Assembly: GCF_964355755.1 (NCBI RefSeq)
Contig: NC_092673.1
Location: forward strand, 20,953,648 to 21,017,647
Reading direction: 5' to 3'
DNA: 64,000 bases
DNA from: Antedon mediterranea
Taxonomy: Eukaryota > Animalia > Echinodermata
A model generated the notes under the pieces. That model was not told the origin of the DNA and made no database searches. It saw nothing but the letters and a program-made list of their open reading frames with translations. Position numbers and translations under genes: made by a program. Every line of letters begins with the position of its first letter. Positions within the stretch are counted from its first letter, which is position 1. This document shows, piece by piece, positions 41,401-64,000 of this stretch.

Positions 41401-44400
41401 GACCCCGCTAATCTTAAAATAGTTCATACGCCTTACACAAGACCACTTAATGTCCCATTCAAAGGACAACATAACAAATATACTATCATCATAAATACTA
41501 TCATGCCAAATAAACTGAAAAAATATTAAAAAATTTTAAAAGATACCTTTGTTTTGTATTTGAATTAATTCTTTGCCCGCAACTGCTTTGATTTGTGGGA
41601 AGCTATCATTCTGAGGCATCTGATTGGACATTGAAAGTGCTTTCTGTACCTTGATACGGATTTCCATAAAGTTATCCCATAAGCCTGTTTTTCACAAACA
41701 TAAAATAAAGTTATATTTCAAGCTATTATAATGATCTTTTCTCTTCTACTTAGCACAAGTGAATAATCTAGTATTGTATACCATATGTTTCTTCTAACCA
41801 ATTGGCAATGTAGAAAAGCCTTTAAGTTAGTAAGTGGTAGAGTGGTTAAGACAGTTAACTAGCCATAAATCGCACTTGCTCCATAGTTCTGGTGGTAAAA
41901 CGAGACTTCTCGGATAAGGACTATAAACCGTAGGTCTAGTGTACACATTTAGCTCATGTGCAATTTAAAGAACTTAGTACATCTTTCGAGACGAGTAGGG
42001 GGTTACTCCGGTGTATTAGTACACACACAGCCACTGTCACACTCATCATAACTGGGCCATCTGACAGACCAGTCTATGACTGAAGAGGTCACCCAGTATA
42101 AAGAAATAATAAATAAAAAAGTTTACTATGAAATGCTGAAATGAAATAAAGCCAGCACGCAAATAAATTATACTAACCCAGCTGTGCTTTAGCTGCATTG
42201 CCTTTCTGAATTTCTTCATTTAAATCTTGATTAGAAAATGGCTTCAACATTTCATCCTCCTCTTCTTCCACCCCTAAACTGTTATCCTCTTCTGAACTTT
42301 CATCTCCTTCTTCATCTGAACCTATTACAAGAACAACAGATATATATTATTGAATATAATTTGTTACAACATGGGTTCAATAATGTAGTAATGTGCACTC
42401 TTTATTTTTTCACTATAATGCACTGGAGTGCAAAAAGTGCGCCGCAAAAAATTAAACAGCACTCTGCGTGTACTGTAAATCGTATTGCAGATTATCGATC
42501 AAGCTGGAATTCCTGCACGATTTACAAGTACGAACCAGGTTGTCTACACCGTGGCCCCATAAAAATAAAAAAAACATACACCACGCCATGGTAGGCCTAG
42601 CTTTTTTCTAGCCTAGGCATATTCACCAAAAAAGGTATAAGTGAAAATAGTTCATAGATGCATGTTATAAAACAAATACTGCACAAGTCTAAATTGGAGC
42701 ATTCAAAGGTATTTACAATGTTGCGACATGCATGAGGTGCAGCCAAGTGCATCTTGCATGACATTGTGAATACCTCCACTAATGCACTCTGACTTTGTCT
42801 TTATTCTTTGGTCCATTCTACCAGGAATATTCATTGGTGGTTTTAAAAAAGCAACCAAGTTTTACTCTCATTTTGTCATTGCTATACCTTCAGATTCATC
42901 ATTTTCTTCGTTGCTGTGTTCTTCTTCATCCGTCCCCTCTTCCTCATAATTATCAACTTCATCTTCCTCCTCACTGCCTTCTGCTATCAATTCTTGTTTA
43001 CACTTGATAGATGATATTGTGTTATCTTCCGTAAACTCAATGTCAATTGGGTCAAGTAACAATTCAGTATCTGTTGGTAAAAATATAATATATATTTAAA
43101 GTTTCATCACTGAAATTTATTAGCAAAATAGGTTTATCGTTACATTATAGTATTACGGTGGCAACGTCAGAATACTATGTGACATCACTTGTTACTCGGC
43201 AATGACACAAGCGTTCAATGACTTTTTTCTGGTCTACGATTCAATGGTATCTTTTTGTTAACAGGCACTGTACATCATTTTAAACTGATCGTTACTTCCA
43301 AATCTTCATTATTTTCCAAACTTTTAGCTTGTAAATAAAAGTTAGTCACTTAAGGTACACCAGATATTAAAAGATATGTACACAAATAAGGCCACTCTAG
43401 TTCAACTGTGGTTCGCTTGGCTAGAAAGTTTCACCATTGTATTGCAGACCGGAAAAAAAGTAATTAAACACTGGGGTCGTTGCCAAGTAAAAAGTGGTAT
43501 TGTGACATAAAAGTGATACTCTTTAAGGTAGAATTGGAACCAAAATTATTTTTTGGAAACAACACTACAATATTCAAAACTTCTGAATAGGAACCTATGA
43601 TACATCATCTGTTTCCCGAATAAAAATCATATACGGTCTGTACGGAGTAATATATACAGAATTCATAAACTTCAAAAAACATAATTAGACCGATCAAAAT
43701 GGCATGTTACTATTATTAACTCAATTTTGTTTTATTCCCTACTCACTCCCCTTAATGCCACTTAATTGAAATTAGCCAAATATACAGCCCACCAAAAAAC
43801 ACCAACAATATAACTTTTTTGTTACCATCTAGTGAGTCACCATCTAGGGAGTCATCAGAATCAATCTGCAATTCTTTCCGTGAAACTGTTTTTCCAGAGT
43901 ATTTCTTGTCGGTTGATTCTAACAGACTTGCATTCCTCTGTCGTAAAGAGCTTGGTTGTGAAAGATCTTTGTCATCATCCTCATCATACTGATCATCTAA
44001 CTGTGCTCTTGAATCTAACAAAAAAAATGGAATTTCTAGCACCTGTACAACATATAAAAGAAGGCAGAGATACAGCGATTCATTGATAACTATTTTTTTG
44101 TTTTGTGGCAAAAAATAAGTGGACGATGGATTGTTTTAGAATGAAAAGTATATACTGTATTTTTACTTGTTTCTGGGAAGAAAAGTATAGGCCTAATAAA
44201 ATATTTTTTGTATCATATATGACAAATGACAAGGACAACTTCGACAAAATTAACATTTATAATTACAAAACTGATTTAAACAAAGAAAAGGGGAAAATTC
44301 TTGAAGCAGATGCTTATAAAAGAAAAAAACCCATTTAAATATAAAATTCATTAATAAATGTAAATCAGCTCAAAATTATAATTTCAAAGAAGTTTTCCAA

Positions 44401-46828
44401 CAAAATACTACATTAATACTAAGCAAACAATTTAGTTTTTATTTTTGATTTATAAAAGAATCGGTTTACGAATTACTTTCTGAAATCAAATGCATAAGAA
44501 TGGGTTTACTAATTACTTTCTGAAATCAAATGCATACAGTAGGCATGGGTTTACTAATTACTTTCTGAAATCAAATGCATAGGCATGGGTTTACTAATTA
44601 CTTTCTGAAATCAAATGCATAGGCATGGGTTTACTAATTACTTTCTGAAATCAAATGCATAGGCATGGGTTTACTGATTACTTTCTGAAATCAAATGCAT
44701 AGGCATGGGTTTACTAATTACTTTCTGAAATCAAATGCATAGGCATGGGTTTACTAATTACTTTCTGAAATCAAATGCATAGGCATGGGTTTACTAATTA
44801 TTTTCTGAAATCAAATGCATAGGCATGGGTTTACTAATTACTTTCTGAAATCAAATGCATAGGCATGGGTTTACTAATTACTTTCTGAAATCAAATGCAT
44901 AGGCATGGGTTTACTAATTACTTTCTGAAATCAAATGCATAGGCATGGGTTTACTAATTACTTTCTGAAATCAAATGCATAGGCATGGGTTTACTAATTA
45001 CTTTCTGAAATCAAATGCATAGGCATGGGTTTACTAATTACTTTCTGAAATCAAATGCATAGGCATGGGTTTACTAATTACTTTCTGAAATCAAATGCAT
45101 AGGCATGGGTTTACTAATTACTTTCTAAAATCAAATGCATAGGCATGGGTTTACTAATTACTTTCTGAAATCAAATGCATAGGCATCGGTTTACTAATTA
45201 CTTTCTGAAATCAAATGCATAGGCATCGGTTTACTAATTACTTTCTGAAATCAAATGCATAGGCATGGGTTTACTAATTACTTTCTGAAATCAAATGCAT
45301 AGGCATGGGTTTACTAATTACTTTCTGAAATCAAATGTATAGGCATGGGTTTACTAATTACTTTCTGAAATCAAATGTATAGGCATGGGTTTACTAATTA
45401 CTTTCTGAAATCAAATGCATAGGCATGGGTTTACTAATTACTTTCTGAAATCAAATGCATAGGCATACTAATTACTTTCTGAAATCAAATGTATAGGCAT
45501 GGGTTTACTAATTACTTTATCATATTATATAATTCTTATAGACATTTTTTGTACAGTTTTCTATTACATGAACATTTGTGGAGTATTGAAGACACTACAA
45601 TTTGTGACGTTTTTTTAAAAATAATACATACATTACTTTAAAAACATTAAACCAGGTCATTCCTTGTCTTAAATGTACGTTTTATGGTAATTTATGATAA
45701 AAAGTCAGAAACAATGTACTACCTAAGTAGCTTGCGACGAGGCTTAGTTTTGTAGGCCTAGGTGGTAAACATCAGTAACGTACGAACATCGTACGCTAGC
45801 TATATACCTAGTCTGACGTTGTATAGTTGCTGCATTACTTGTCTTTCTATTTTTGCCAGATTCCGTTGATACAAATTGAGGAAAACCCGTTATTTTCGCT
45901 GAAAAGTTAGGAGTCTTCCATTTGTTTTGATCAAAAAGTGGGTGAATTACATAAGAAAAAAGAAATATCAATGTGCGCGCAATGCATTTTGGGATTTATA
46001 GCGGGTCGCTATAATTATTACAATCAACTTATTTTTCACATTTTTAACCATTTAAAGACGAAAAAGGTTATCGCAATAGGACCATATATAGTATTATTTT
46101 TACATTAAATATAGTTTGTGATCTTAAAATAGATCTAAAAACGTAGGAAAGGTGTCTTTAAATACAACGGAGAGTTTATTCCATATTAAAATTCCTTTAT
46201 TTGAATGATAAACACATTTGTTTTAACGTAGTTTTCCTTAAATTGATATGAAAATGTTCATGCTGTCTGGTATTATACTTATAGTTATGGATATCTTTAT
46301 TTTGTTTAAAATATTACCGATGGATTATATATAGGCCTAGGCCTAGCCTATATTATATAATAAATTAATATATTCCTATATAAAACTTGGATCATCCTAA
46401 AACTCTACCGACCGGGGGTAGGCCTAGTAGTATGGCCTATTATGGCTAGTTTAGAGAGGATTAGAATGGAGGCCAACTGGCGCTACTTTACTGTACTTTC
46501 GCACCTAACTAGGCATAATACTTCACGGCGGTTACTCGGCATCCGGTTACTCACCCTCACCGCCGCGCAGCGAGATTCATACCAGCGACTAGCCTAGGCT
46601 AGGGTCGGCTAGGCTAGCTAGAGTAGTAGTACTAGGAGTAGGCTAGAGCCTAGAGGGCATCTAGACTAGGCCTACCATTTTAGGCTACTAGTATTGAGCA
46701 TGGCTTACACATATACCCAGCAACTTACAAGAAAAATCTTCGTCTTCAGGGTCTTCAAATTGTGGTGTCGGGTTGCTTAAAATAGCGAACTGTTCTGCAA
46801 TATTATCAGACTTTTTACTTGTCGACAT
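32434..46828 (-). CDS. AATF: AATF / BFR2 / Che-1 (nucleolar SSU processome factor), 13 coding exons, about 556 aa
   Basis: Phase-consistent GT-AG exons: 46828-46729, 44014-43826, 43070-42888, 42321-42178, 41684-41547, 41273-41156, 40729-40450, 39726-39565, 37441-37364, 36770-36709, 35065-34985, 34394-34323, 32497-32434 (1671 nt). Diagnostic peptides: [124 protein letters not shown]. Confidence 0.96.
32657..33970. repeat. 94-bp tandem array, about 14 near-identical units, in the last AATF intron
   Basis: Unit ataagtgtgatgtgcccaaatatggtagtgatatatatgggcacatcacataaagtacagtaggttgtcttacacatgtcatgcattattttaa, with starts 94 bp apart (32661, 32755, 32849...). Confidence 0.95.
35545..35860 (-). mobile_element. 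tRNA-derived SINE, family A (AATF intron)
   Basis: Near-identical to 678-984 over about 300 bp. Confidence 0.85.
37602..38459 (-). mobile_element. 3' fragment of a LINE (CR1/L2-clade-like ORF2 C-terminus plus 3' tail)
   Basis: ORF 37860-38486 contains [42 protein letters not shown], the typical post-RT region of CR1/L2/Crack LINEs. The tail has (aaatgtgg/aaat) repeats. Confidence 0.85.
38491..38562 (+). pseudogene. tRNA-like cloverleaf (ATC anticodon, Asp-like) inside a dispersed repeat; a diverged inverted copy lies at about 39068-39140
   Basis: Acceptor stem gccccaa/ttggggc, A box tggtctaatggtt, anticodon arm ctgc-atatcaa-gcag, T arm ccgac-ttcgagt-atcgg (one mismatch), followed by TTTTT at 38565-38569. 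Confidence 0.55.
41830..42118 (+). mobile_element. tRNA-derived SINE, family A (AATF intron)
   Basis: gtggtagagtggttaagacag...cggataaggactataaaccgtagg...cacccagtataaagaaataataaat. Confidence 0.8.
44462..45519. repeat. 40-bp minisatellite, about 26 units, in AATF intron 1
   Basis: Unit aggcatgggtttactaattactttctgaaatcaaatgcat, head-to-tail with rare point variants. Confidence 0.95.
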
Positions 46829-46950: not shown

Positions 46951-48584
46951 TTTTTTTTATTTCACACACGGGGGACGGCGGATTTTTATTCTCATTATAG
47001 AATGAAGGAACCGTGTTACTGTAACTGCAAATGAATCAAGTAGTTTTCAAATTCATTAAGTAAAATGTATATTTATTTTCAAATAAAATAAAAAATAAAA
47101 TGATAAATTCAATAATACTTTTTGTTATAAATCGTTGGCTTTCTATTTTAATTTTGAGACTTAAACAGAAAAAGGTAGATATATTGTAGGAATTTGCTGG
47201 GCAATGTTAAACAGTTTTTTTAATTAGGAAAAAGGTAATGTGTGCGCAAATATGAAGCATCTTAAAAAGTATTCAAGTGAAACATATACTTTAGGTTAAA
47301 AGTTTTAAAATGTTCTAAAAGATCCATGCTCAATAAAAAACTTATAAAAACCTAATTTATATATAAAATCTTTGTATGATAAAAAGAAAGGTAACTAGCT
47401 ATAAACATTTGATTTTGTAATAATTCTTCTGTTTATAAATCAATTTATACATTTAAATGTGACTATAACGTAACTATATACAAAGAACAAATTATTTTTT
47501 AAAGCTTTAAAATTAGCAAACATAAAATAAAAATATGAGAAATTAAATTAAATGGAAGACGATACAGAGCTTTTAAAATAAACAGAAATCCAAGCAGCAT
47601 TATAAATCGTAGTTCATACATACAATCGAATATTACAATATATTACCTCACATAAAACATTTAAAATTTAACAAAATCAACTTATTTGTATAGAAAAGTA
47701 TAACCTTAAATTCTAAATCATAATTTGACACTTAAAACTTACATAGAAATATTTAGTAATACATTTAACAATACAAAGTATATAAATAATACTGTATTAA
47801 CGAAAGAAACATATTCAAACATATCAACTTTTAAGCTTTAGTTGACAGCAGCCACCACAGCCTGACATAAATAATTACCATACTGACTTGGTTATAAGCT
47901 AAAGAATTTGTATGATAAACTGTATAAAACGCTATACATTTGCCCTGTATCTCCACACAAGTCATCAAGTAGATAACTTGGACACAGACTTGTTCATCAT
48001 TTATATATCGTTTTATAATGAAATAGCTACACTTCACATGACAGAGCTACAGTACACTTTCACTTTCATGTATATCACTATTATTTGCACATAAACTTTT
48101 CTTTTTTATTTATATTTTATTTTATAAGTAAGAATAACATCGTTACACTTCACAATTTCACAAAACAAATGATTCAAATAGTAAACAAGCACATTTTTAT
48201 GACACAAGGTCACCACATATTTTTTTAATTTGTCAACAATGATTCTCAAATGGTAAAAAATTTTGGGTTTATCAATTTATTATGGACAAAAAACATGATC
48301 GTTTATGGGAAGATACAAGAAGTTTGGCAAGTGGGGACTAAACACGGGATATGAGATTCTCCCACAAACCAATTATTTCTATTAAGTCATTTTCCTTGCT
48401 TTTCACATTGAGTTCATTCAGTCCTACGGTATTAGAAATTTAGATTTAATGTAACAAAGAATTAAAAAAACAAAAAATTTGTTTTAAGAAAAAAATGTTG
48501 TTTTAATGTTCTCTAATGTCAAAAAAGGTGTTCATTTTACCTGAAACATATTAAGTAGATGGAATGTAAGTAAAGTAATGTAAA

Positions 48585-49062
48585 TATAGGAAACAGATCA
48601 AGGCTAGCAATACTGTTATCTTTTTAGGGCATTGAGAGGACTGAAACCCCATGAAACTGATCAAGGCTAGCAAAACTGTTTTCATAGGGCATTGAGAGGA
48701 CTGAAACCCCATGAAACTGATCAAGGCTAGCAAAACTGTTTTCATAGGGCATTAAGGGGACTGAAACCCCAGGAAACTGATCAAAGGTAACAACACTGTT
48801 TCCTTAGTGTATTGAGAGGACTGAAGCCCCAGCAGACAGATCAGGGCTAGCAACACTGTATTCTTAGGGCACTGAGAGGACTGAAACCTTCGGAAACAGA
48901 TCAAAGGTACAACACTGTTTCCTTAGTGTATTGAGAGGACTGACAGCAGACAGATCACGGCTAGCAACACTTTTTTCTTAGGGCATTGAGAGGACTGAAA
49001 CCCTAGGAAACAGATCAAGGCTAGCAACACCGATTTCTTAGGGCCTTGGGAGGACTGGGACG
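48585..49062. repeat. About 60-bp degenerate tandem repeat (about 8 units) just 3' of the TIR-SLOG stop codon
   Basis: Unit tagggcattgagaggactgaaaccccatgaaactgatcaaggctagcaaaactgttttca. Confidence 0.85.
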
Positions 49063-49076
49063 TTATAGGGAACACA

Positions 49077-52000
49077 TTAATCAAGACTTGGCCTAATTTC
49101 ATCATCAACACTAATCGCTTTCATTTTACAAAAGCTAGCTTTTCGGCTGGCTTGTAACACTGATGTGTTTGTTGACTCTTTCTTCTTCTGTAATGCTACA
49201 ACTATCCTAGCAACAGCGTCTCCTATTTCATCAATTCCGGCATTTTTATCCCCTAGCAACTCCCAGTCATCTGAACTTACACCATCTGGTACCTGTAAAT
49301 AAATCATACAAAACTTTTTTCAGTCTCAAAAATAATAGTAACGTATAATAATAGTGATTAGTTTCTATTATAATGTGCCATATGATACTTTATAATTTTT
49401 GATTCATAAAGTTTTAAAAAACAAAGAAATATGTTGGAATTACAGGAAACCATAATATGTAAATTGTGAACCTTAAGAATTTTCAGGTTTCATAAGAACT
49501 TTTAGGCTTCTAGTGATTTTATTTATGAAGATTTGTTTTTTTCTTACCTTGAATATTTTTTCAGGAACATTAAACTTTCCGCCAGCTGCTCCACCAGTGC
49601 ACTTGACTGGAATGACAACATGCTCACTCCATGCAAACTGCTCGGCTTCGTGTGCTGCACCTGGACCTCCTAAAAACATACATTTATATTGTAATCATGA
49701 ATACATAAATTGCGAGTGAGGGGTCGAGCGGATAAGACAGTGGAACCATAATTACGTAGCCATAACATCGGCAAAGGTTCAAAGCTCACTCGCTCTGGTG
49801 GTAGAATGAGTCTTCTCGGATAAGGACTATGAACCGTAGGTCCAGTGTACACATCTAGCTTATTTGCACTTTAAAGAACCTAGTACATCTTTTGAGACAT
49901 GTAGGGGGTTACTCTGGTGTATTAGTACACACACAGTCTCTATCACACATGGCCAATGATCATAATTGAGGTCAGTCAGTCAGTCAGTAATAAATAAATA
50001 AGCGATTATATGCATTTAATTTTAAAATATTATTTTTACAAAAAACAACCTTTAAGACGCTGAACTTACCCTCAATAAGGATACAGATGTCAAATACTTG
50101 TGATACAATGTTCTCACGGTCTCGCACACTCTCACCGTGAAACAATGTTTCACCAAAATTCACACTGCGAAATGTCTTGTCTTCGTTTTGACTACCCTGT
50201 TTACTGCGGTCCTGTTTATAATTACAAAACAAAGCTTATATAATTTAAATATAAAAATTGTATTTTTTTTTGTCAGATAATATGCTAACTTCTTATAGCC
50301 TACTGGGCACATAAGTTATTTAAGAGTTTTTAGTCAACATTGTACACTAGGATTGTACTAATCCAATTTTGTTATCATACAAGTGTAGACCTGTGGCCAT
50401 ACTCATCATTCACACTTAGGGAAAACATTTTCCATTAAAATTTTAAAAAATCTCCTGTCTTAGTAAATACAGTTTAAGGGAAGTACTTACAAATTTATTG
50501 AGTGAAATATTTAGGTAAAACATCTCACTTAAGTGTGATTGGTGAATACGCGGAAACTGTGCAAAGCTTAAATGCATGCATTTATTTATTTTTATTTCTC
50601 CACAAACATTATTCGCGCAAACAAGTTCACCTAGGCTTTATGCAACTTACTTCATAATCTTTGATTGGTAGTATATGCCATGTATTTGCTGGTTTCTTGA
50701 GCTGTATTCTGGTGTCATAGAAACTCCTAGAGACTAGTTTACCAACGCCAAAGAAACCGCCTGTTGCCAAACCAATGTAATCTATTTTTGCTAATGATTT
50801 ACCTATAGCTCTTCACAAGGTAAAAACAATAATAAGGTCAGTTGTAGTAGTAATTATAATGTCAAAACGGTCTTAAATGTTAAATGTATTTATTCATCCT
50901 CAAGCTTAACGGGAAACTAAGGAAATTTGGATTAGGCCCTCTACAGACCCACGATATTATCATTACACCATCACTCTCTGTTATATACATCACCTGCCAC
51001 TATTTCTATATGGTTTCCCGTCCATAACGCAACGTGATCTGACAAGAACCGGTGTTTTAACGCAGTATGCCTTGTAGGATAAAACTAAAGAATGTAATGG
51101 TGATACAAGCTATCGTGTTTAAAGAAAGTTTATACTAATAAATTTTAAATATTGACTCTCTCTGCTTATACCCGTGTAAATGAAGTTCAAAGTCTATAAC
51201 TCAAGGACCACAATTGATATACAGTATTAATTATTATTTGAAATATGTAGCAGATAACTTTACAAACTTACCGGCAGATCTGTTCACTTTTATCATAAAA
51301 AAAGCGTGTTCCTCCAGAGATGTAAACACATTTTTTCAAGGGAAGTGAGCATTTTAAGTCGTGCACCTGAAACATTTAGTAAATAATAATGAAGCTCTTT
51401 ATACATGAAATGGTTAGATTCAAGTCATGGTTAGGCTTTCAGCACCATATTCTCATCAGGGAATGTAATATGTACTATCATCTAGTGTTAAAGACCCATT
51501 CTCTACAATTGTTGACGTTTTGTAAAAATAATGCATATATATTACCGTAAAAACATTAAACCAGGGTATTCCTTGTCTTGGATGTACGTTTTATGGTAAA
51601 TTATGATTAAAAGAGAGAAACAATGCACTACCTAAGTAGCTCGCGGTGAATGTCGTCTCACGGACGGTCTTTAGGCCTAGCCTAGCTAGGCTTAGTTTTG
51701 TAGGCCTAGCTGGTAAACAATAGTAACGTACGAACATCGTACACTAGCTATAGGTCTAACCTGACCTTGTCTAGTTGCTGCATTGATTGTCTTTCTGAAT
51801 CCGTAATACCAATCGGGGGAAACCTAGTATTTTCGCTGAAAAGTTACGATTCTTTCATTTATTTTAGCCTTAACGATCGATCGAAAGTAGGTGAATCACA
51901 GAATAAAAACTAAAATATCAATCCATGCGCAATGCATGTTGGGATTTATAGCAGACCGCTAAAATTATTAGAATCAACTTATTTTTCACATTTTGAACCG

Positions 52001-55000
52001 TTCATAGACAAAAGTTTATTGCGATAAAAGTTATCGCAATAGGACCATGTAGTATTCATTTTTACATTAAATGTAAGTTGTGACCTTAAATTGGATCTAA
52101 AAAACGTAGGGAATGGGATTTTAATGGTTGATGGTCCTTTAATTATCAACCATTGATCTATCTCTAAATGTATAATAACACTATTCAAGTTTTACTTACA
52201 AACTGTAAGTGACTATAACTGAATCTGGTAGAAGAATATTTTAATTTATTGGACCTCTGTGTTTTGTCTTTGTTCTTTGACATTGTAACTGTTTGTTTGT
52301 CTGGGCCTTCTTGGAAGATTTATGTTTAAAACTGTAACTAAACTAAAATAAGGTTACTCACATGATTATCAAATTCTGCCTCTTTAGTAGCCTCCGCTTC
52401 AAACTCCTTGGGATCAAATGCTTTCTTAACTCGACTCAAGAGGGAGTCTTTATACCCTGTACGCTGCACATCCTAATTACCAAATAGAACAAAATGTAAA
52501 TAATTTTGTTATATTTATTAATTTCAGCAAACAAGAGATAAAAACAATGAGTAAAGCTCTGTCTACACTATCAAACTCTATGTGACAACAAAATGTCCAT
52601 ATATGGACATGATGATGCCATATCACTACCATATTTGGGCAAATAACACTTTTGTTGTCAAACTAGTTTGATAGTGTAGACAGAGCTTTACGTGTTGAAA
52701 AGATTCATAGGATTTTATTTATAAATTTATAATCAAATGTAAATGATGTTTAAACTGGAAAGGTATTTATCATCATTCTCAAGCTTAACTGGATTTGTAT
52801 TAGGCCAATAGAGTAGCGCCTACCAGATCAGCACACTGGGAGATGATCGATTAGTGGGTACTGGCGTAATCATATGCAATATGTAAACTGACCTCAAATG
52901 TACTTGTTCCTATTAACATGGACATCCATCCAGGCATTTCAAAGTGTTCGTAATTCAAAGGTACAACACGTTTACGATGTTCGCAATAAAACACCTACAT
53001 TATAAAAAAAAAAAAAATTACCTATATTATACAGCAGAACACAATTGAGGTACTTTAAATCCATTTTACTCACAAACTATTTTGTAAGATGCAATAAGAA
53101 GTTTAATGTGTTCATACATCAAATCCCATTTTAGACACAGACACAGCTGCCAATCAAATTCAGTGCGACCATTGCTTGAACTAATCAACATTGTTTTATC
53201 ATTGCATTCATTATTGTTTTAAGAAAATTCACCTGGTGAGCATGTGCAGAAAGGTTAAAAAAAAGGTCAATCACTGATTATCAAGACAGGATTAAAGACA
53301 GTGCGTAATGGCTATTAGCACTCACTGGCTAAACCCAGAGCTTATGGGGGTCCTGAGCAGTGCCCAGAGAAAAAAAACAGGCATTAAAATATTTCAAAAA
53401 AGGCTAAAAACATCCAGCGTTGGAGAGCCAATAATAGGGTTCCTAAACCAAAAGCCTCAGGCCTCTATGTTACGCTACTCATGATATAAAGCCTTCCTTT
53501 TGAACTATATACTATGTTTATTTTTCATACTTTACCTGTTGTTTGCAAGTCTTTGATTCAGCAAAAGCCTTTGAAAGAACAAATAACACTATACCAGATT
53601 CATCCACTCTCTGCTGAAACATGACCTTTGACCGACTCTCAGCTGACATGTCTTGTGTGCAGATTACAGGTATAGTTGAATCTAATAAAACAAAGTGTTT
53701 ACTCTTTGATTTTATTTATGTTTTTATTTATTTTATTTTTGTTTGTTTTACTGTTGCGGTCAGTAAATAGTCGTTTGGTCTGTAGGTAGTCTGTTGGTCA
53801 TTAAGTAGTCTGTTGGTCAGTAAATAGTCATTTGGTCAGTAAATAGTCGTTTGGTCTGTAAATAGTCGTTTGGTCTGTAAGTAGTCTTTTGGTCAGTATA
53901 GTAGTCTGTTGGTCAGTTCAGCTCCTAAATGAATCATCTGTGTTATTGTTTTTTCTTTGTCTTAATTCTTTACTATATTGTATCTTTACCTGATGATTGT
54001 GAAGACCCTTGTGTAGCACTGAAGTCACTGAACTCCATTAGTTCTGTTGTACACCATACCTCATATCCCTCACCTTCAAACAATTTTTTAATTTCATCCG
54101 CCTAAAAAATAAATTTTGTTTAGTCTAGTGAGTAGAACCTCTTATTCAGAGGACACCTCAATTAAGGGATCACTTTATTGGCTGCCCATATATAGGTTAT
54201 ACTATATTTATTTAATATTATTATTATTAAACTTACGAAATATGCTTGCTTTGGATGTACACCAATGACAACCAATGGTTTTCCTTCTCTGCTCTCCATG
54301 GTAACAAATGAGCTCCTACTAGCACTATTTGGGAGAACTGAACCATAACTCTTCAACATTGTGGCCTGAAAAAAACCAAAACATTCTACCAATGTTAACT
54401 AACAATAGTATAAATATAGCAGTAATAATTACCATTTTTCATCAAATTTATTTCAAAATATTTACAATTTCAGGTCAATTAGTGGAAATTAATGGTTCTC
54501 AGCTATAATATTTAATGCTGAAACAATTAATTTGAAGTTAAAAAAATGTTAAATATAAGTGATCACATGATAACATACCCTCCTTGTCAGTCCATTCTCT
54601 GTCTGTTTGTCCCTCAAATCTTTAAACCTTTCAGCAACTTCTCCAGATACATATTGTATATCAGTCATGTCCCATGAATACGTTTTCTCTCCATTGCCTG
54701 ACTGGCCTACAGTGATTAGTAAAGCAAAAACGATCAGGTTAAAGGTTAACTAATTATTGTAACAACATGAAATAGTTTGATCTGATTGGTATGTTCATGA
54801 CCTCTAATCTCCGGGTGTCCCATGTGCTCACGGTCACTACAAAGAGGTTAGATATAATTAAGATTGAAGAAGAAAATTCAGCAAAAGATTACTAAAGCTC
54901 TGTCTACACTATCAAACTTAATGTTACAACAAATATGATGTACGTATATATGGACATGATGATATCATGTCACTACCTATTTGGAAACATCACACTTTTT

Positions 55001-58000
55001 TGTCAAACTAGTTTGATAGTGTAGACAGAGCTTAACACTATAAGCATGCAATCATAGAAACATTACCATAGATAAAAATACTACTATACCTTAGAATCCC
55101 ACATATTATTTGATATTAGTAGCTAATACTACAAAAAAAGAAAAACAGGCGAATGCAGGCTACATTGATATTAGTACTGTGGTATTACGAGGAACAGGCG
55201 AATGCAGGCTACATTGATATTAGTACTGTGGTATTACTAAGAACAAGTGAATATTGGCTGTATTAATACTTGGGGATAAAGTACACTTTAGGGTATTATG
55301 ACAATGATATTATCTAACGGCCTTACCACGTTAATCACCAAAGTTAAGCAACGTTGGGCCCGGTTAGAGCTTGGATGGGAGTATTGGGTGCTGTATATGA
55401 AGCTGGGGACTCTTATGGCAACTGCATCTAGTTTATGCCTCAGACGTATTAGCTTATGCCTCTCCTCTGGCTAAGGTGGGCACTGGACAAGAGAAGCCCA
55501 TATTAAACAGTCCTGGCTTATTCATTATTCAGATGAATATAAGACTAATTGGCACTGTCGTTTACAACAGAAGTCAGCCATCAACAAAAAAATTATCTAA
55601 CAATACACATTTATTCAACATTTTAAGAAACCAAAGAGATAACCCAAGAAAAATGATAAAAGATATATTGTCCCCCTAAACAATTTCTTTTGTTGAATGT
55701 GTCATTTTTATTAATCTTTATTGTGAAGTTTTTGGAGGACAATACATCATGAATGTTTAGAAGCATGGTTTTCACAATGACAGTTATCTCTCCTGAAAGA
55801 TTTTTGTTAGTTGGTTCAGTTTTTAAATAAAATGTAGTTAATGTTATTATTAATATTGTGTAATGTATAATTTTATTTATGTTAAATGATAAATAATAAT
55901 AAAAAAACAAAAAAACTGATTATATTGTATAAAATAGAGTTCTGCGGTGTGACGTCACAACGATAGATGGCGCTGCATGGTTGCTAGCCAACTAAAAAAT
56001 GCGTTCAACGCAATGACTACTTCAATAAGCCTATTCCAAACCATTGGTGACCTTGGAGTCACTCAGCCAGGCTGAACGCATTTTTGGTTGGCTAGCAACC
56101 ACGCAGCGCCACCTACCGTTGTGACATCAGCACCATAGAACTCTATAAAGGATTTTTGACATTTTGTTTAAAATCAACAAGACACAAGGGACTACAAATA
56201 ACCAATGCTATCAGATATTTTACATAATTGTATTTTGACTTTCTTCTCGTTTAATTTGATGTTAATAGCTTTATGGATAATCATCGCAAAAAAGTTTTGA
56301 TTTAATTGTTCATAAATCCCCGTTATTTACCTGATATAACTTTCCCATGAAAGGAAGACATCAGAATTTTTGTAGTCCTTGTCTCTGAAATAAAATTTCT
56401 CCAACATTTTCAAAACAATAAAAAAAGATTTTTTTTTAATATCCGATATATGATAAATAAATAAATATTTATACTACAGTTTGGAAATATGATGTTAGAT
56501 TAATCTTGAACATTTCAAATAAAGAAAGTTATTCATCAGAATACAGGAGTTTATTCCAAATAAACAAGGCAGATATAGTGAGTATTTGCTTTCCCATAAC
56601 TATGAAGTTCTAACTGGGCCTAAAAACCCAATGATTTCACAAATTCAAGGAAATGAGTGAGACATTTGTTTGTTTATTATTTATTTTACCAGATATTCTA
56701 CAAGTTCACATGGTTATAGGTATCATCAATATAACAAGGATTTTTAAAGGGTTTCATTTTTCATAGGGACAAAAATTGACAGAGCTAGGCAATAGTAGTT
56801 GAATATATCATCACTTCTTCTTTGGAAAGGTGTAAAAATGTGTCGAAAAAAAAACAATAATGCTTTCACAACAAATTGATAAATGTTGATTTTAGTGTAT
56901 ATTTCTGTGTGGACCATTATACTAACTGTAATAACTGAGGATAATTTGCCATTTTATGTAGGCAAAAATATATTCATAAATGTTGATTTTAGTGTGTATA
57001 TGTGTATGGCACCATTATACTAATACCTGGTGGAGGAGTATTTTGTAATTTTACATGACAACAAAATTAATAAATGTTAATTGATTTTTAGTGTATATTT
57101 CTGTGTGGAACCATTATACTATACCTGAGGAGTATTTTGCCATTTTCCCAAATGCGCTGTTGTCTGATAGTGGTTTCTTAGACTTAACTGTTGGCAAGAT
57201 TTCACACAGTTAGCAGAAAATGACTAATAACTACAAACAGAATATTGAAAGGTCACTGAACAGTCTTAAGCTCTTTCTTCACTACCAAACTAGTTTGACA
57301 AAAAAAGTGTGATGTGCCCAAATATGGTAGTGATATGACATGTCCATATGGGTATATCACATATTCATGACACATTTAAGTTTGATAGTGTAGACAGAGC
57401 TTTATCTTGCTAATAAAGGCATATTTTAAGCTGTATTTATTATTTCATAGAAGCTTAGAACTATCTTTTAGACAGATGATACATACATTCTATACTACAG
57501 AATATTGTTTTATGGTAAAATGGTAAATTCCATGGCAACAAATTTTTATTGGCTTTTCAGTATGATAACTTTACTTAATTAGAGAGATTCTATCCTAAAT
57601 AGTTTTGGAATTTAGCAAGCAAAAGATTTATAGCATAGAATTACAAAGCTCACACACAACAACAAAGCAAAACATAGCTAAAAATAATAACAAAACACAT
57701 TCAAGTCTACATATTATGATGGATAAAACTCAGGACCAATGTAACATGCAATATGACAATTGACAGCCTACCGTTAGAAAGATCAGGCCTTTTCCATGCA
57801 ATGAACTGCGTGGTTGCAAACTGAATAGCAAGACACCCAGGAGGCCACGTGTCTAGAAAGTTTACTGGAACTATAAACTTCCCGAGTACATCTGCTAATT
57901 TGATCTTCAAAGCACAAAATGAAAACCATTTTAATAACAATACAGATATTTTATTTATAAGATATAATTTTAGTGATTTAAATCACTAAAAAGATCAATT

Positions 58001-61000
58001 TCTTTTCTGAAGATGAACACACATTCATGAAATAATATTCGTAATAATATAAGTAAAGCTCTGGACTACCTCTAGGATTTAGTCCTGGACTATCCTAAAA
58101 AGATATTTATGAATGTGGTTTTATACGCCTATCCACCACATTACGTTGATTTATTGCTATTCATTAATATCAATATTAATATTGTAAATTAGCTTTATAA
58201 CCTTATGCATCACATTATTATGTTAATTGTACTGTGTCAGTATGGATTCAACATATGCTTTGGGTCTACAAATGTATTTATTGAACGATACAAAATGAAA
58301 ATTTTTCTTTTACCTCTCTATTTGTCCATTGTGTTTGACCATAAGCTGGAGTTAGGAGTGGAAGAAATACTTCACAATTACTAACAGCAAAGTTTAAACT
58401 GTCTTGCCAGTCTGTTCCACATCGTATCTCATGTACATCCTACAGGACATAATGTAAAAAGGATATTAGAAATGCACTGGACAAGGACTAGCAGTATAAG
58501 AAGAGTAAAATCATAGCATACATAAACCTAGAGTCTACACTATCAAACTTTATGCGACAAAAAAATGTGATGTGCCCATATATGGTAGTGATATGTCCAA
58601 GTATGGTTGTGATATGATATCATCATGTCCATATAGGCACATCACATTTTTCTGTCACCTAAAGTTTGATAGTGTCTGTTACTAAACATTTGAGGAAGCC
58701 AATCAGTCAAGGGTTTAGGAGGCGAGAGACTGATCATTTTCGAAACAAGAGGTAAACTTTGATCTGGCTGAGATCAACGTCCTGTTGTTAGATTGCCTTG
58801 TTTATAGCATTTAAATGTCCGATTTTTGTCCATGAACAGAGTCATTGTGAGTTATTCATGTCAATTTAAACACATATAATAAATCATGTACACACGCCTG
58901 AAGAGATACAGATGATTCACTGATACTATAACTTATTTTTATATAAAAAGTAATTTTATTGGTTGAGGGAATTTAGAATAAATTTTGCTTTTAAATATCA
59001 CCAAGTTGCATAACTAATTAACTTCATAATTTACTATTAATCTAAACATTTTAATTAAGACACCTTCTTCCATCATCTGTCTTCTCACACATTTTACAAA
59101 CAGTTTTGCGAATGTACACACTCAATGCAAAAACATAACATATAACATCCTTTTACAAAAAAGAAATAAAAAAGAATCAAGTATTGATATATACTGTGCT
59201 TGACTGATACTTCATGAGATTGATATTTCATGTGATTGATATATCATGTGATTGATATATCATGTGATTGATATATCATGTGATTGAAATATCATGTAAT
59301 TTGTATAATTTGATTGACTGATATACCATGTCATGTGACAAACATATTACAAACATGCCAAAATCTGAATTTTTTTTAAATGGGAGGTGGTGTTTTTTAT
59401 AGGTCAACAGCACCTTCTATTTATTATTGACACCAGGAGAAATAAGGAGTGCAGTGTTTGACGTGACATATCCATGTGGTGAATATGTAATGAAAATCCC
59501 CTTCCGATGTGAGGAAAATCGGTTTAAAAAAAAATTATGACAGTAGATGTTCGTAGAATGGCTTAAATTTCGTAAATTTGCTTGTGTATAAGCTTTTTTG
59601 TTATATTTAATGCACAAACAACACATACATCAAGTTCAGTTATCTTTGTAATCTGGGAGAAAATATGGAAAACCAAGAGCACAATGTAAGGCCAGGATAC
59701 GAGTCTAACATATGGCAGTCTCTCCGCCAAAACGGGAGTGTTGGCTTGTATATATTTTGGTATATTTATCCACATATAAATCAATACAAAAATACATACA
59801 TTATTACTAATGCAGCCCAACGAGCTGAATTGCAGAAATAATATATTAGCCTAAATTGATTGATTGACATCAGAAAAGCTACGAGAAAGTTACGAAAAAC
59901 ACACAGTACGGGGAAAAAAAACCGTAGTCAGGCACAAATTTTGTGGTCAATGTATATATTTAGATATGTAATAAGTGAATGTTTTAAGGTTTTTTATTCA
60001 TGTATGTTTTTAATTGTATGGTACAATATCTAATTTTATTAAGATATTTCTATTTTTATAGCAATTTTAACTAATTTTTAGTCATTTGTAATACATTCAT
60101 TTCAGTCCTTGACTGTTGTTTTGTAATATATTTTTATATACCGAATAAATAAAAAATTAAAAAAATATCAAACAATTGCAACAAAATTGCACGTATGATA
60201 TCATGTGATTGGTTGATATTCCACCAGAAAAGATTTATTATCAAATTAATAATTCAGACACTTACTAGATAAACACTGAACCCCTCTTCTTCTAAACCTT
60301 CTTTCAAATCCAAAGCACATTGTGTTGCCTCTGCTCTAACGTAACTAATCACAACTTCCTTGGCTAGTTGCTCATTTTCAAATGGCACAGGTGAGTTTGG
60401 TTGTGTTCGTGGCAAAGAAGGGGATTTTGAAGCAGAATGATTGACAACAGTTAGAGAAGAAGTTGATGGTTGATGACTATGACTATGTACACGTGTCGGT
60501 GTTCTAAAGAAAAAATGTTTAAGATGTAAAACCAAACCAAAAACATGAAAAATTAAGATTAATAAAATCAGACTTTAAATAGGCCATTTAACAGTTTTAA
60601 TCAAGTTATTAACTTCTGTAAAAAAATATATAATTATTTCACTTAAAAAACGATAAAAGAAATGTTTAATTTTAAACAAAAACCATTGTCTGACAGTGAC
60701 AGACATATTTTTTGCTTTAAATTACATTTTTTCAGGCAAATAATTTTGTTTTCAATCCAGTTTTTGGTCAAAGTGAATAAATATTAAGTGTAATTCTGTT
60801 CATTTGAATTTGTTATTTCATTCCAGCTTTATTCAGGATTTACATTAATATAATAAAATATAACTAGTACAAATATGGTATAATCGAGAAACTCCCTATA
60901 GTCAAATGATTATGATAATGCCTTGAAAGAGGTGTACACTTCATATAGACGCATACATAACTTCTGTTTAAGAAAGCAAGAGAACATACTGTACCTTGCT

Positions 61001-64000
61001 ATTGTGATCACTACTTATTGTAATTGCTTCTCTCCTCAGAGGGAAAAAGGGCTATTTTGGTTTATTCAGAAAGCTAGGCATAAAATAGCCAACTGGAGGA
61101 ATTAGCAATGCTCGAGCAAAGTCTATCAAATGTAATTGATGTTTGGAACCAATTTAATAATGGAACAACAGACCAAAAATTATGTATGTTCTTGGTTCTT
61201 CCTACAAATATTGAAGTTGTATTCGATAGATTTGGTAAAGGTTTCACCAAATGGGCATGGAAAAGTAGAAGGGAAAGCAACAATAAAAATGCTATAGTTC
61301 TTTGCTTTTTAAATCCTGTATTACTTTTGTTTATGTTATTTCCTTGTAAATGGGCCTATTGTTATTTTTTTATTTTTTTATTTTACTTACTCTGTGCCAC
61401 GTGTTTCAAAAGTGTAGCTTTCAAAATAAATTATTATTATTATTATATTCAACACTTACGGTTTAAGCACCTTCTGTGGAGGCGAGTCTGAAGAGTCTAT
61501 TTCTTCCATTGGCTCAACAACCTCCTCTCGTCTGTCGGCACCAGCACCAAATACATAAACACTAGCACCAGATATGATATCAAGAACTGATAAAGAAGAT
61601 TCTTGTGATGGGCAGATTGGCCATTGGTTACGATCTAAGAAGATTATATCTGTAGTACATGACCATGACCTGCCACCAAGCTGAAAGTTTCAATATACAT
61701 GTAAAGTCAATGTTTGTCCCATTACAGGGCTTGACATTTATCCTAGTAGGTCCTTTTTCTGCTGCCCAAAAATAATGGATGGTTAATAACTGTGTGAATA
61801 AATTAACCCCAATTTCTTGGCAGCAGAAACAGGACAAATTGTCAATAACCTGTTAAATGGCAGCCTGAAAATAACAGTTAAAAACAGCCAATCGATTTGG
61901 TGTTAGATTATTTGATTGACAGCCTTTGACTTGAGTCAACTACACTGCAGTTTGAACTGACTGCCAGTGCCAATTGCATTTTGGGTACTGATTCTGTCTG
62001 CGATCATACGGTCTATATAAAAATTATAATTTTGAAATAAATTGTTTATTTAGCGCTATGGAGAAGAAACACCTAGTAAACTAGCAAAAGATTTTTATAA
62101 TTGCTAGCTAGTTAAAAATGTCAAAACTTGCTACAACAAATTTGCTAGTTACAGTAGATATTTACAACTAACAAAACAAAAAATATTGATATTAGTTAAT
62201 TTACCAATAAAATGTATAGTAATTTCAACTTCAATATAATTTTGAATATAATTTAAAGTATTATAGATACGGGAAATCAACAGAAAACATTAAAACAGTA
62301 GAAACTTAAAATTATACATGATATTACCAGGGTTGTTATTACTATTTGAACTAGTTATGAATAGAAAGAGGAAGTGAGCGATGATCACATGCTGTGAACT
62401 CTTGACCTTATAGTTGTATTAGAAAAAAAATCAAGCTCATATGTTTATGCAGCTCACCAAAATGGATTGTGATTTATAGGAGGAATTCCAAAGTACATTA
62501 CAGCTATCTTAAGCTGTGTTTTATACAACAACCTAAATTTGAACACTTCTTTAATTTTTAATATGCAAAACAAGCAAAATTAAGACAAGTAGCCTTTTTC
62601 ACAATTATAATCACCTTAAAACAGAATCTCTACAATGAAATGATGACGCTACTACGTTGGATGGCTCCCTCTTGAGGGCGTGGTTACGGATGCGTGCATT
62701 ATCCGATAGGGGTGCTATGTTATATATACACAGATTTTTCTTTTTCGTAAATTGTATCCTCTCTTCGGAGAGAGAGGCTATATTGTCGGTTTATCCAGGT
62801 AAGCAGGCACGAAATAGACTCTACAATGTTATACGCCACACTTCTTGTAGGCGTGTTGAATGCATGTAATATTAATAGCATGTTGTATAAACGCACCCTA
62901 AGTTGGAGTTGCGAATCAATATAAAGAATATAAAATACTATAATGTTAATTAAATATCTCATTTTTGTGATATTAAAAAAAAGTAATAATGTAAAGTGAT
63001 AGGTTGATGAGAAAATAACATTTTTTTAAATTATCTACAGTACAATCTTGTAATTTATGGTAATTTAATCTCATTATATAATAAAAGAATAAATTAATTA
63101 CCTGAGAGGCTACAGCTCGTCTGAGATCAGAAACCATTAATGTTAAGCTGGAGACAAATACAAAGCCTAAGGCAGTTCCATCTTTCGTAATAATTCCAAC
63201 TCTAGGCCGATCTACTGACAGAGATGATAATAATTAGATAAATATTTAATTACCATCTTTAATGAGGGTGGCCTAACAGTTCCATAAGATATTAAAGATG
63301 TATTTCCCAAAAAAACATGAAAAATGAAGATTAATAAAATCAGATTTTGAATAATGTAGGTCATTTTGCAGTTTATTCCTCTTTCCATAGAAAAAAAAAC
63401 AAAAATAATAATTTCAGTTATAAAAAGACATAAAATTGGTTAAATTAAAGAACTCATTGTCTGACAGGCAATGGGATTCCGTTTTAAATTATGATATATA
63501 TATATATATTTTTTTTAATCTAATTTTTACAAAAAAAAATCTTTTTTCAGGGGGGAAAATATGAAAAGGCAATCAGTCCATCACAACTAAATAAAATGCA
63601 TTTGTATAAGAAAGTAGGAGTTGTAGTTACAGTATATCTTAGTATTTCTTGGTAAATTATCATGAACTAAATTAGCAAAGAATCACTAAATAGTTTAAGT
63701 TAATATAAAACAAACCAAGGCAAGCCATTTCAATAAATAATATGTCCAATGGTTTCATTTCTGTATCAATGAATTGATAAACTATGGTTATACTAGCAAA
63801 CAAAGTATCACTGATATATAATGTTTGATTTAAAGTTTGATGAAAATAATACTAATTACTGTATTAAAAGTCTTGCAGGACCTCAAAAACAAAAACATTT
63901 ACTTACCAAATCCAGGCTGAATTTTAATGACGCCGTTTTCATTGATAAGATGTTGAATTTTAATTAGAGCTTCTTGTATTGATGCTACAGGCCATCTGAT
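49077..64000 (-). CDS. Multi-exon gene (5' end beyond the window) encoding putative ubiquitin-like repeats - TIR - TIR - SLOG protein, >795 aa
   Basis: Phase-consistent GT-AG exons: >64000-63907, 63214-63102, 61680-61460, 60503-60266, 58439-58314, 57904-57772, 54706-54579, 54365-54237, 54101-53990, 53681-53536, 52994-52893, 52472-52362, 51366-51272, 50810-50651, 50211-50070, 49669-49548, 49292-49077 (2388 nt, open to TAA). TIR1: EVVISYVRAE..LEEEGFSVYLDVHEIRCGTDWQDSLNFAVSNCEVFLPLLTPAYGQTQWTNREIKLADVLGKFIVPVNF. TIR2: LVVIGVHPKQ..FEGEGYEVWC..VDESGIVLFVLSKAFAESKTCKQQVFYC..RVVPLNY. SLOG: CVYISGG..CRAIGKSLA..LATGGFFGVG..RDRENIV..CILIEGGPGAAHE..VVIPVKCTGGAA. Confidence 0.88.
49712..50000 (+). mobile_element. 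tRNA-derived SINE, family A (TIR-SLOG gene intron)
   Basis: gcgagtgaggggtcgagcggataagacagtggaacc...ggttcaaagctcactcgc...cggataaggactatgaaccgtaggtcc. Confidence 0.8.
51488..52124. mobile_element. About 630-bp non-autonomous DNA element flanked by TTAA; second copy at about 45588-46160
   Basis: ttaaagacccattctctac ... gtagggaatgggattttaa. The interior (aaaacattaaaccagg..ccttgtctt..atgtacgttttatggtaa..gttatcgcaataggacc) is collinear with 45588-46160. Confidence 0.75.
53755..53918. repeat. About 19-bp tandem repeat (ggtcagtaaatagtcgttt)
   Basis: About 8 degenerate units in an intron of the TIR-SLOG gene. Confidence 0.75.
55315..55525 (+). mobile_element. 5S rRNA-derived SINE (SINE3-type)
   Basis: Head acggccttaccacgtt..atcaccaaagttaagcaacgttgggcccggttagagcttggatggg..tattgggtgctgta matches 5S rRNA (A and C boxes) with deletions. 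The non-5S body is shared with 7800-8006. Confidence 0.75.
55935..56146. mobile_element. MITE with about 70-bp TIRs
   Basis: tagagttctgcggtgtgacgtcacaacgatagatggcgctgcatggttgctagccaac.. / ..gttggctagcaaccacgcagcgccacctaccgttgtgacatcagcaccatagaactcta. Confidence 0.8.

Follow-up and report, generated by a model that had tools for sequence, protein, structure and literature searches.

The window analysed here is a stretch of 64,000 nucleotides of Antedon mediterranea (contig NC_092673.1, positions 20,953,648 to 21,017,647), which with a GC content of 0.29-0.39 is AT-rich eukaryotic DNA. Its minus strand carries a gene for XP_071947692.1 (P0001), a protein of 910 residues which is annotated as "uncharacterized" and has four isoforms with common last 250 residues. 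The protein is laid out as Ubl-Ubl-TIR1-TIR2-SLOG, that is, two ubiquitin-like (Ubl) and two TIR domains are followed by a SLOG domain at the C-terminus. According to tblastn, residues 80-910 map to positions 63994-49080 and residues 1-79 have no match within the window; the gene runs past the window end, where these residues are presumably coded.

A sequence-only reading of this DNA had described the SLOG domain from seven motifs and considered it closer to the ThsA/STALD sensors than to the LOG enzymes; that the domain is the end of a Ubl-Ubl-TIR-TIR-SLOG protein goes beyond it. The seven motifs, from CVYISGG to VIPVKCTGGAA, are found in the order it gave, spread over four minus-strand exons (Table 1). 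The splice signals of the five exons at the SLOG end are regular, with AG at all five acceptors and GT at all four internal donors, and the exons, read as a single open frame, give exactly residues 667-910 of XP_071947692.1. In a putative RNA run, positions 60265-60503 and 61460-61680 from two upstream exons stand back to back on one contig, which is a splice. A second contig appears to span the last SLOG exons, as judged from one depth value that recurs at 49032-50744. A bacterial contaminant or a recent transfer was rejected due to the AG/GT introns and the orthologs across phyla.

Table 1. Coding features of the XP_071947692.1 gene within the window
Feature	Position	Strand	Remarks
SLOG exon 1: strand 1 (CVYISGG), beginning of helix 1, residues 667-698	51272..51366	-	AG/GT ends, identity to XP_071947692.1
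SLOG exon 2: strand 2 with TGG-x-x-GVG loop, strand 3 (WHILP)	50651..50810	-	
SLOG exon 3: insertion, helix with Arg783 (LOG catalytic Arg position), strand 4	50070..50211	-	
SLOG exon 4: GGPGAAHE loop with Glu806 (ThsA E403 / LOG catalytic Glu position), IPxxxTGG	49548..49669	-	
Last coding exon: C-terminal SLOG helices, stop codon	49077..49292	-	Outside the coordinates of the sequence-only reading
Five exons: TIR2 (residues about 495-650, Gln595 at catalytic Glu position) and linker helix	52350..54368	-	Limits by tblastn
Three small exons: TIR1-TIR2 linker, mostly of low model confidence	54579..57197	-	Limits by tblastn
Three exons: disordered linker and TIR1 (residues 268-376), WTNRE with catalytic-site Glu340	57773..60502	-	Limits by tblastn
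Three exons: tandem ubiquitin-like (beta-grasp) domains, residues 80-219	61459..63994	-	tblastn

In the full protein Pfam recognises two TIR_2 stretches (E 1e-23), LDcluster4 and STALD below threshold, and no SIR2. In the full-length AlphaFold model a pair of beta-rich folds at the N-terminus is followed by two TIRs and one SLOG; how these are arranged to each other is unsure because the predicted template modelling score (pTM) is 0.55 and the predicted local distance difference test score (pLDDT) is 75. With this model Foldseek finds the SARM1 TIR, TM1055, ThsA, TRPM2 and the ubiquitin-like domains of USP7, and the SARM1 TIR is the best PDB match of the protein by sequence as well as by fold. 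WTNRE of TIR1 aligns with WVHKE of SARM1, the Glu of which is the SARM1 catalytic Glu. This residue of TIR1, Glu340, is kept in 88 of the 90 filled homolog rows; TIR1 carries the Glu on helix alpha-C by which catalytic TIR NADases are recognised. TIR2 has Gln595 there, kept in 79/90 rows (Glu in 3), and a Glu five residues further on in 87/90.

A search with the whole protein yielded 92 proteins at E≤0.001, the query included, from 7991 scored candidates, and most of them cover >80% of the query. The named matches come from a sponge, Trichoplax, nemerteans, molluscs, annelids, a priapulid, a tardigrade, chelicerates, hemichordates and echinoderms, and a separate search showed that a second sponge carries the family too. 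None of the named matches listed is from a vertebrate, insect, nematode or cnidarian, which does not prove a loss. Many of the homologs already bear the labels PF13676 and PF18306 in the databases. The architecture has been kept over a range that extends from sponges and Trichoplax as far as chelicerates and echinoderms.

The SLOG domain alone was modelled with a pLDDT of 95. The first 50 structural matches obtained with VIA, with Z values up to 18.0, are without exception SLOG-fold entries, and the Rossmannoid fold, the glycine-rich loops and the helix Glu in the pocket, which characterize the SLOG superfamily, are present. Because 92 proteins match, the model is confident and the top structural matches are all SLOG, the domain is no chance find. 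Foldseek ranks the BcThsA SLOG structure with 3'-cyclic ADP-ribose (3'cADPR) first, at a TM-score of 0.67 versus about 0.49 for LOG. The VIA Z of ThsA is 17.8, and lower values are obtained for PpnN (15.6), LOG (14.2-14.9), DprA (13.3-14.6) and TRPM (12-13).

For comparison by profile, reference sets of 10 STALD, 12 LOG, 12 TIGR00725, 6 LD3, 2 LD2, 3 prokaryotic LSDAT and 6 DprA sequences were used. In hhalign the animal SLOG set reaches a probability of 97.1 with STALD (E 6e-11), 92 with TIGR00725 and 90 with LOG, while LSDAT, LD2, LD3 and DprA each stay <2. None of 16 SLOG domains of the family is matched by the Pfam families LOG (none at E≤1), DprA or LSDAT, and the mean score of the LOG profile on animal SLOG domains is only 9.5 bits. 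The curated cut-offs are not reached: with STALD (PF18185) the Antedon domain scores 23.3 bits and the full protein 18.2 at a cut-off of 24, with LDcluster4 the domain has 25.7 bits at a cut-off of 26.3, and with TIGR00725 17.8 bits, far under 106.9. The SLOG profile finds PDB sequences only weakly (TM1055 at E 0.04, TRPM2 at E 0.2, and short-chain dehydrogenase noise), and the ESM Atlas offers merely leads, with Cap17-like_N, LD_cluster3, LD_cluster2 and STALD clusters first, all <0.9. The LDcluster4 model rings in 13 of 14 control genomes and was as an unspecific model rejected for family assignment. Judged by profiles, STALD/ThsA is the nearest named SLOG family, and the placement closer to ThsA than to LOG, as made by the sequence-only reading, holds modestly.

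When 1.84 billion representatives were searched by profile, 775 matched at E≤0.001, 528 of them at E≤1e-10; the figures given here for the kin of the animal SLOG refer to the best 150, with 42 proteins scanned for fused domains. Animal SLOG and kin match by profile at E 1e-59. Among the 42, Macro, TIR and ion channel domains are each fused in two proteins; other partners are a dual-specificity phosphatase, EF-hand, ankyrin, CAP-Gly and a response regulator, and tandem SLOG repeats occur as well. In genome contigs the animal SLOG alignment gave 16 pattern matches, none of which was confirmed, and the kin alignment gave 24 loci from 79 pattern matches. The standalone kin are proteins of ~200 residues, with loci in Planctomycetota, Verrucomicrobia, Eisenbacteria and others.

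Trees were calculated with IQ-TREE from 154 columns, with LG+G4 on 48 and with a mixture model on 40 of 94 rows; YpsA, cpYpsA, YAcAr, TPALS/Cap17-like_N and eukaryotic TRPM are in none of the trees, and LSDAT is represented by the three prokaryotic rows. Both trees unite animals and kin in a clade, with supports of 98/96 under LG+G4 and of 96/93 under the mixture model. Sisters of the animal clade are a Tetraselmis TIR-SLOG protein, an MMETSP TIR-SLOG protein and a channel-SLOG protein (93/88; 100/94). The next branch adds STALD together with a TIR-fused bacterial SLOG under LG+G4 (90/98), and STALD, LD2 and LD3 under the mixture model (86/75), both below the threshold of the tool for a firm branch. 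TIGR00725 is a clade of its own (100/100), and in both trees TIGR00725 and LOG stand apart from the animal clade. In the approximately unbiased (AU) test a clade of only animals and STALD is rejected (p-AU 0.00096). According to these trees the Antedon SLOG is not a member of STALD but sits in an unnamed clade near it.

The single TIR of the MMETSP protein scores 40 bits to TIR2 versus 22 to TIR1, and this protein also shows a weak ubiquitin-like match (14 bits). In both protist TIR-SLOG proteins the TIR has a Glu at the matching helix position. We infer that the TIR-SLOG pair is probably older than the animals and that TIR2 would have lost its Glu later.

Some members of the unnamed clade deserve mention of their own. 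P0173 and P0174 are eukaryote-like ion-channel proteins of ~1300 residues with the SLOG C-terminal to the pore, a fusion that apparently does not depend on that of TRPM. The tree places P0173 beside the animals (100/94). P0211 is a Macro-SLOG-GUN4-pentapeptide-response-regulator fusion, in which an ADP-ribose (ADPR)-binding Macro domain stands beside the SLOG. P0150, P0153, P0156, P0160 and P0163 contain at least two tandem SLOG copies, one of them together with EF-hands.

The pocket was compared residue by residue with B. cereus ThsA, the reference sequence of which reproduces the published numbering. The 3'cADPR contacts of ThsA are, in the accessible text of bioRxiv 10.1101/2022.05.07.491051, E403, S290, R371, K388, G289, G399, L326 and Q359, and the available part of PMC7272460 gives S288, F357, R371 and E403 as typical for STALD. 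Matched in Antedon are G289 (G684), G399 (G802), E403 (E806) and S288 (S683); changed are S290 (G685, with Ser in 39/90 rows), L326 (F718), F357 (L745) and Q359 (I747). The STALD pair Ser288/Glu403 is represented by Ser683/Glu806, and neither Phe357 of the RPF strand nor the Lys388 hairpin is. IPxxxTG and a Gly at position 329 of BcThsA are common to the animal SLOG and STALD and absent in the 12 LOG and 12 TIGR00725 sequences. Of the ThsA-like motifs which the sequence-only reading had listed, this C-terminal one and the Gly hold, but the Ser of ISG (Ser683) is present in just 38 of 90 animal rows.

That reading had also taken the loss of the LOG Thr as a sign of ThsA. In LOG, according to the accessible text of PMC4979012, Arg99 and Glu122 are catalytic and Thr119 binds the monophosphate. 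The LOG motif PGGxGTxxE is EGGPGAAHE in Antedon, and with Thr in 2/82 animal rows the loss itself is real. However, 16 of the 28 closest kin have the Thr, so that its loss was not inherited from ThsA; in the bacterial kin the Thr often accompanies Arg, Glu and Ser. Both 'Thr loss' and 'ISG' were for these counts rejected as signs of descent from ThsA.

The reading that we put forward, to which we give about even chances, is that the SLOG pocket binds an ADPR-type nucleotide and gates the predicted TIR NADase of its own chain. The ADPR-like ligand, already suggested by the sequence-only reading, is plausible because a TIR with the catalytic Glu is found in the same chain. In its favour count further the kept Glu340 and Gln595, SARM1 as the best solved match, the nearness of the SLOG to STALD, the rarity of the LOG Thr in animals, the protist TIR-SLOG relatives, the mention of SLOG next to cADPR-producing TIRs in a figure legend of bioRxiv 10.64898/2026.04.20.719644, and kin whose fusion partners are ADPR-related or serve signalling. 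TIR1 would cleave NAD+ to ADPR or cyclic ADPR (cADPR), as suggested by the alignment of WTNRE with the SARM1 motif, and TIR2 with its Gln may act as a scaffold. By analogy to E403, G289 and G399 of ThsA, the ribose and the diphosphate could be held by Glu806 together with the Gly684 and Gly802 backbone. The ligand might then re-pose SLOG dimers so that the TIR active sites are assembled or disassembled, as in ThsA, for which a change of the SLOG dimer that shifts assembly is described in the available part of bioRxiv 10.64898/2026.03.01.708072. Since the chain is without a SIR2 effector, the output would be the activity of TIR1 or partners recruited via the ubiquitin-like folds. Specificity for 3'cADPR is improbable, and a feed-forward activation of TIR1 is only slightly favoured over damping.

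Several observations weigh against this reading, and the first of them lie in the pocket. The RPF strand of ThsA is HIL in the Antedon SLOG. K388 has no counterpart, with a gap in 14/14 animal and 28/28 kin rows. R371 stands opposite Glu784 in the MAFFT register, with Arg783 adjacent, and the register of hhalign differs. Glu806 is found in 70/85 rows, and in the 15 rows with another residue there, many of them from bivalves, Glu340 of TIR1 is nevertheless kept, so in some lineages the pocket is dispensable or changed. Moreover, the Glu of a TIR is no guarantee of activity, since in bioRxiv 10.64898/2026.04.20.719644 activity was seen for 12 of the 61 animal TIRs examined.

The oyster, scallop and mussel orthologs P0073, P0075-P0077 and P0079-P0082 have Leu for the pocket Glu and keep the Glu of TIR1. 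These bivalve proteins offer a natural control for the function of the SLOG.

The proposed ligand pocket is further put in question by Arg783 and Glu806, which align with the catalytic Arg99 and Glu122 of LOG and are both kept in 63/82 rows, while ThsA has Tyr at the Arg position. A hydrolase fits these residues as well, and catalysis stays within what they allow. The SLOG could accordingly be a LOG-like N-glycosidase which removes adenine from ADPR or cADPR made by TIR1 (or from AMP) and so ends or converts the signal; we regard this, the main rival, as unlikely, if credible. An activity of that kind on ADPR derivatives is proposed for viral SLOGs in the available part of PMC9503650, and the bacterial kin keep Arg, Glu and Ser, with the Thr in more than half. 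The animal SLOG, however, is without the Thr, has Glu at the position of LOG Lys100 and scores poorly with the LOG profile. The Arg and Glu are also present in TIGR00725 proteins, and among the top structural matches are molybdenum cofactor (Moco) carriers, non-enzymatic according to their entry titles, so that the pair is not diagnostic.

A second set of contrary points concerns the relation to other SLOG families. The VIA Z values of TM1055 (18.0), ThsA and the Moco carriers (17.0-17.2) amount to a tie. On the 16 SLOG domains Pfam prefers LDcluster4 (15/16) over STALD (13/16), and NCBIfam TIGR00725 matches all 16. In the AU test a grouping of animals and kin with LOG and TIGR00725 is disfavoured but not rejected (p-AU 0.067), and one with LSDAT is not rejected either (p-AU 0.086). 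The structural tie with TM1055 and the Moco-binding proteins would suit a SLOG that senses another metabolite (AMP, NMN, a pterin cofactor or other) and reports it to TIR1 like the ARM domain of SARM1, unlinked to the products of the TIR. That several side-chain contacts of ThsA are lost points in the same direction, as do the neighbours of the standalone bacterial kin, which are varied and mostly non-defence, with no frequent family among 64 open reading frames (ORFs). What speaks against such a sensor is that members of the clade are repeatedly fused to TIR or Macro domains and that TIGR00725 is without the STALD-type IPxxxTG and Gly329; altogether we find it quite improbable.

Finally, none of the 64 ORFs that flank bacterial kin matches TIR or SIR2 at E≤1e-6, and STALD was found in none of five kin-bearing genomes. 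An origin in a defence island is therefore unsupported, and so is a recent form of the horizontal acquisition from bacterial defence that the sequence-only reading had considered. We consider it very improbable that the domain is a true STALD/ThsA domain, horizontally acquired from a Thoeris operon and sensing 3'cADPR. The first Foldseek rank of the BcThsA structure and weak matches of the PADLOC ThsA models in 12 of 16 members (best E 2e-5) would agree with it. Its membership is already largely refuted, though, by the rejected clade of animals and STALD (p-AU about 0.001) and by a score just under the STALD cut-off. In addition, F357, K388 and Q359 are unmatched, as is R371 by register, and the family spans sponges to echinoderms and reaches into protists.

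One of the closest known systems is type I Thoeris, composed of a ThsB TIR and a SIR2-STALD ThsA, in which likewise a TIR with catalytic Glu is paired with a SLOG. The SLOG of ThsA has the same fold (7UXS; root-mean-square deviation 2.8 Å over 170 residues) and shares Gly289, Gly399, Glu403 and IPxxxTG with that of Antedon. In contrast, the Antedon protein is one chain with two TIRs and two ubiquitin-like folds and without SIR2, is encoded by an intron-rich animal gene, and has its SLOG outside the STALD clade, whereas in Thoeris the TIR is on a partner gene. SARM1, the best solved match of TIR1, is a TIR NADase of animals that senses nucleotides by a domain of its own chain, and its switch by NMN and ARM is described in the accessible text of bioRxiv 10.1101/2022.05.07.491051. 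The Antedon sensor, however, would be a SLOG instead of an ARM domain, SAM domains are missing, and the second TIR has Gln.

TRPM channels (LSDAT SLOG, MHR1/2) contain an animal SLOG too, reported as ADPR-binding in the available part of PMC13143021, and EGGPG is common to TRPM2 and Antedon. Unlike these, the Antedon protein has no channel domain, and its SLOG reaches only the low Z given above and a profile probability of <2% with the three prokaryotic LSDAT. LOG and the TIGR00725/LDcluster4 proteins (TM1055, Moco carriers) share the fold and the positions of the catalytic Arg and Glu; TM1055 ties for the best Z and LDcluster4 is the best Pfam label. The differences are the lost Thr, Gly for Met after strand 2, the presence of IPxxxTG and the separate clades.

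TIR- and SLOG-bearing vWA proteins belong to the MoxR-vWA conflict systems according to the accessible text of PMC7159879. A Burkholderia TIR-like and SLOG protein in which the two regions are adjacent obtains 27 bits on the animal profile; three further SLOG-family loci on its replicon stay <4. It is however a single long-branch example, without the Arg, in a bacterial operon. On this Burkholderia stagnalis replicon (L001, 44-4083) an unannotated gene for a MoxR-like ATPase precedes the 1069-residue TIR-like and SLOG protein, as seen by eye from the ORFs.

The SLOG families were reportedly defined by Burroughs et al. in 2015 (NAR), and a TIR-TIR-SLOG architecture may be listed there. SLOG is also named among the domains of eukaryotic proteins with cADPR-producing TIRs in the legend to Fig. 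3 of bioRxiv 10.64898/2026.04.20.719644, a study in which the Antedon-type family may already be drawn and its TIR tested; in its Discussion and in four mentions of SLOG no animal SLOG receptor is proposed for the cADPR that animal TIRs are now reported to make. The available part of PMC7075850 does not mention SLOG. A full-text literature search found no paper devoted to the Ubl-Ubl-TIR-TIR-SLOG family, and no measured ligand for the unnamed clade is apparent in searchable papers.

The stronger finding than the likeness to ThsA is the TIR-TIR-SLOG chain together with the unnamed SLOG clade. A catalytic-site Glu in the TIR and a ThsA-like pocket have been conserved in one chain since the sponges, and the clade with its 775 representatives also turns up joined to ion channels, Macro domains and phosphatases. 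By analogy the protein may work like a fused Thoeris pair, as a one-chain animal counterpart of the bacterial anti-phage alarm. Having TIR and pocket on one chain allows a concrete test whether invertebrates write and read TIR nucleotide signals. We offer only tentatively, as rather doubtful, that most sampled invertebrate lineages and some protists carry such a single-chain circuit, in which the TIR would make a cyclic ADPR signal and the unnamed SLOG clade would read it. If so, the animal SLOG would be a dedicated receptor for TIR-made cADPR isomers, independent of the SLOG of TRPM, and the circuit would predate the animals, with an apparent loss in vertebrates and insects.

The introns and flanks of the gene contain several repeats. 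An element of ~140 bp has four intronic copies (52551-52691, 54893-55036, 57262-57404 and 58537-58675), three of which have terminal inverted repeats of 24-45 bp. Contig depth is very high over these copies, and the element looks like a high-copy miniature inverted-repeat transposable element. Just 3' of the stop codon about seven units of 60 bp lie in tandem (48565-49098), probably within the 3' untranslated region. A dispersed repeat of ~500 bp is present in two copies, 82-90% alike, at 45628-46141 and 51537-52103; the intron that precedes the first SLOG exon holds one of the two. An Asp- and Ser-rich open frame on the minus strand at 43752-44135 hints at an exon that belongs to an adjacent gene.

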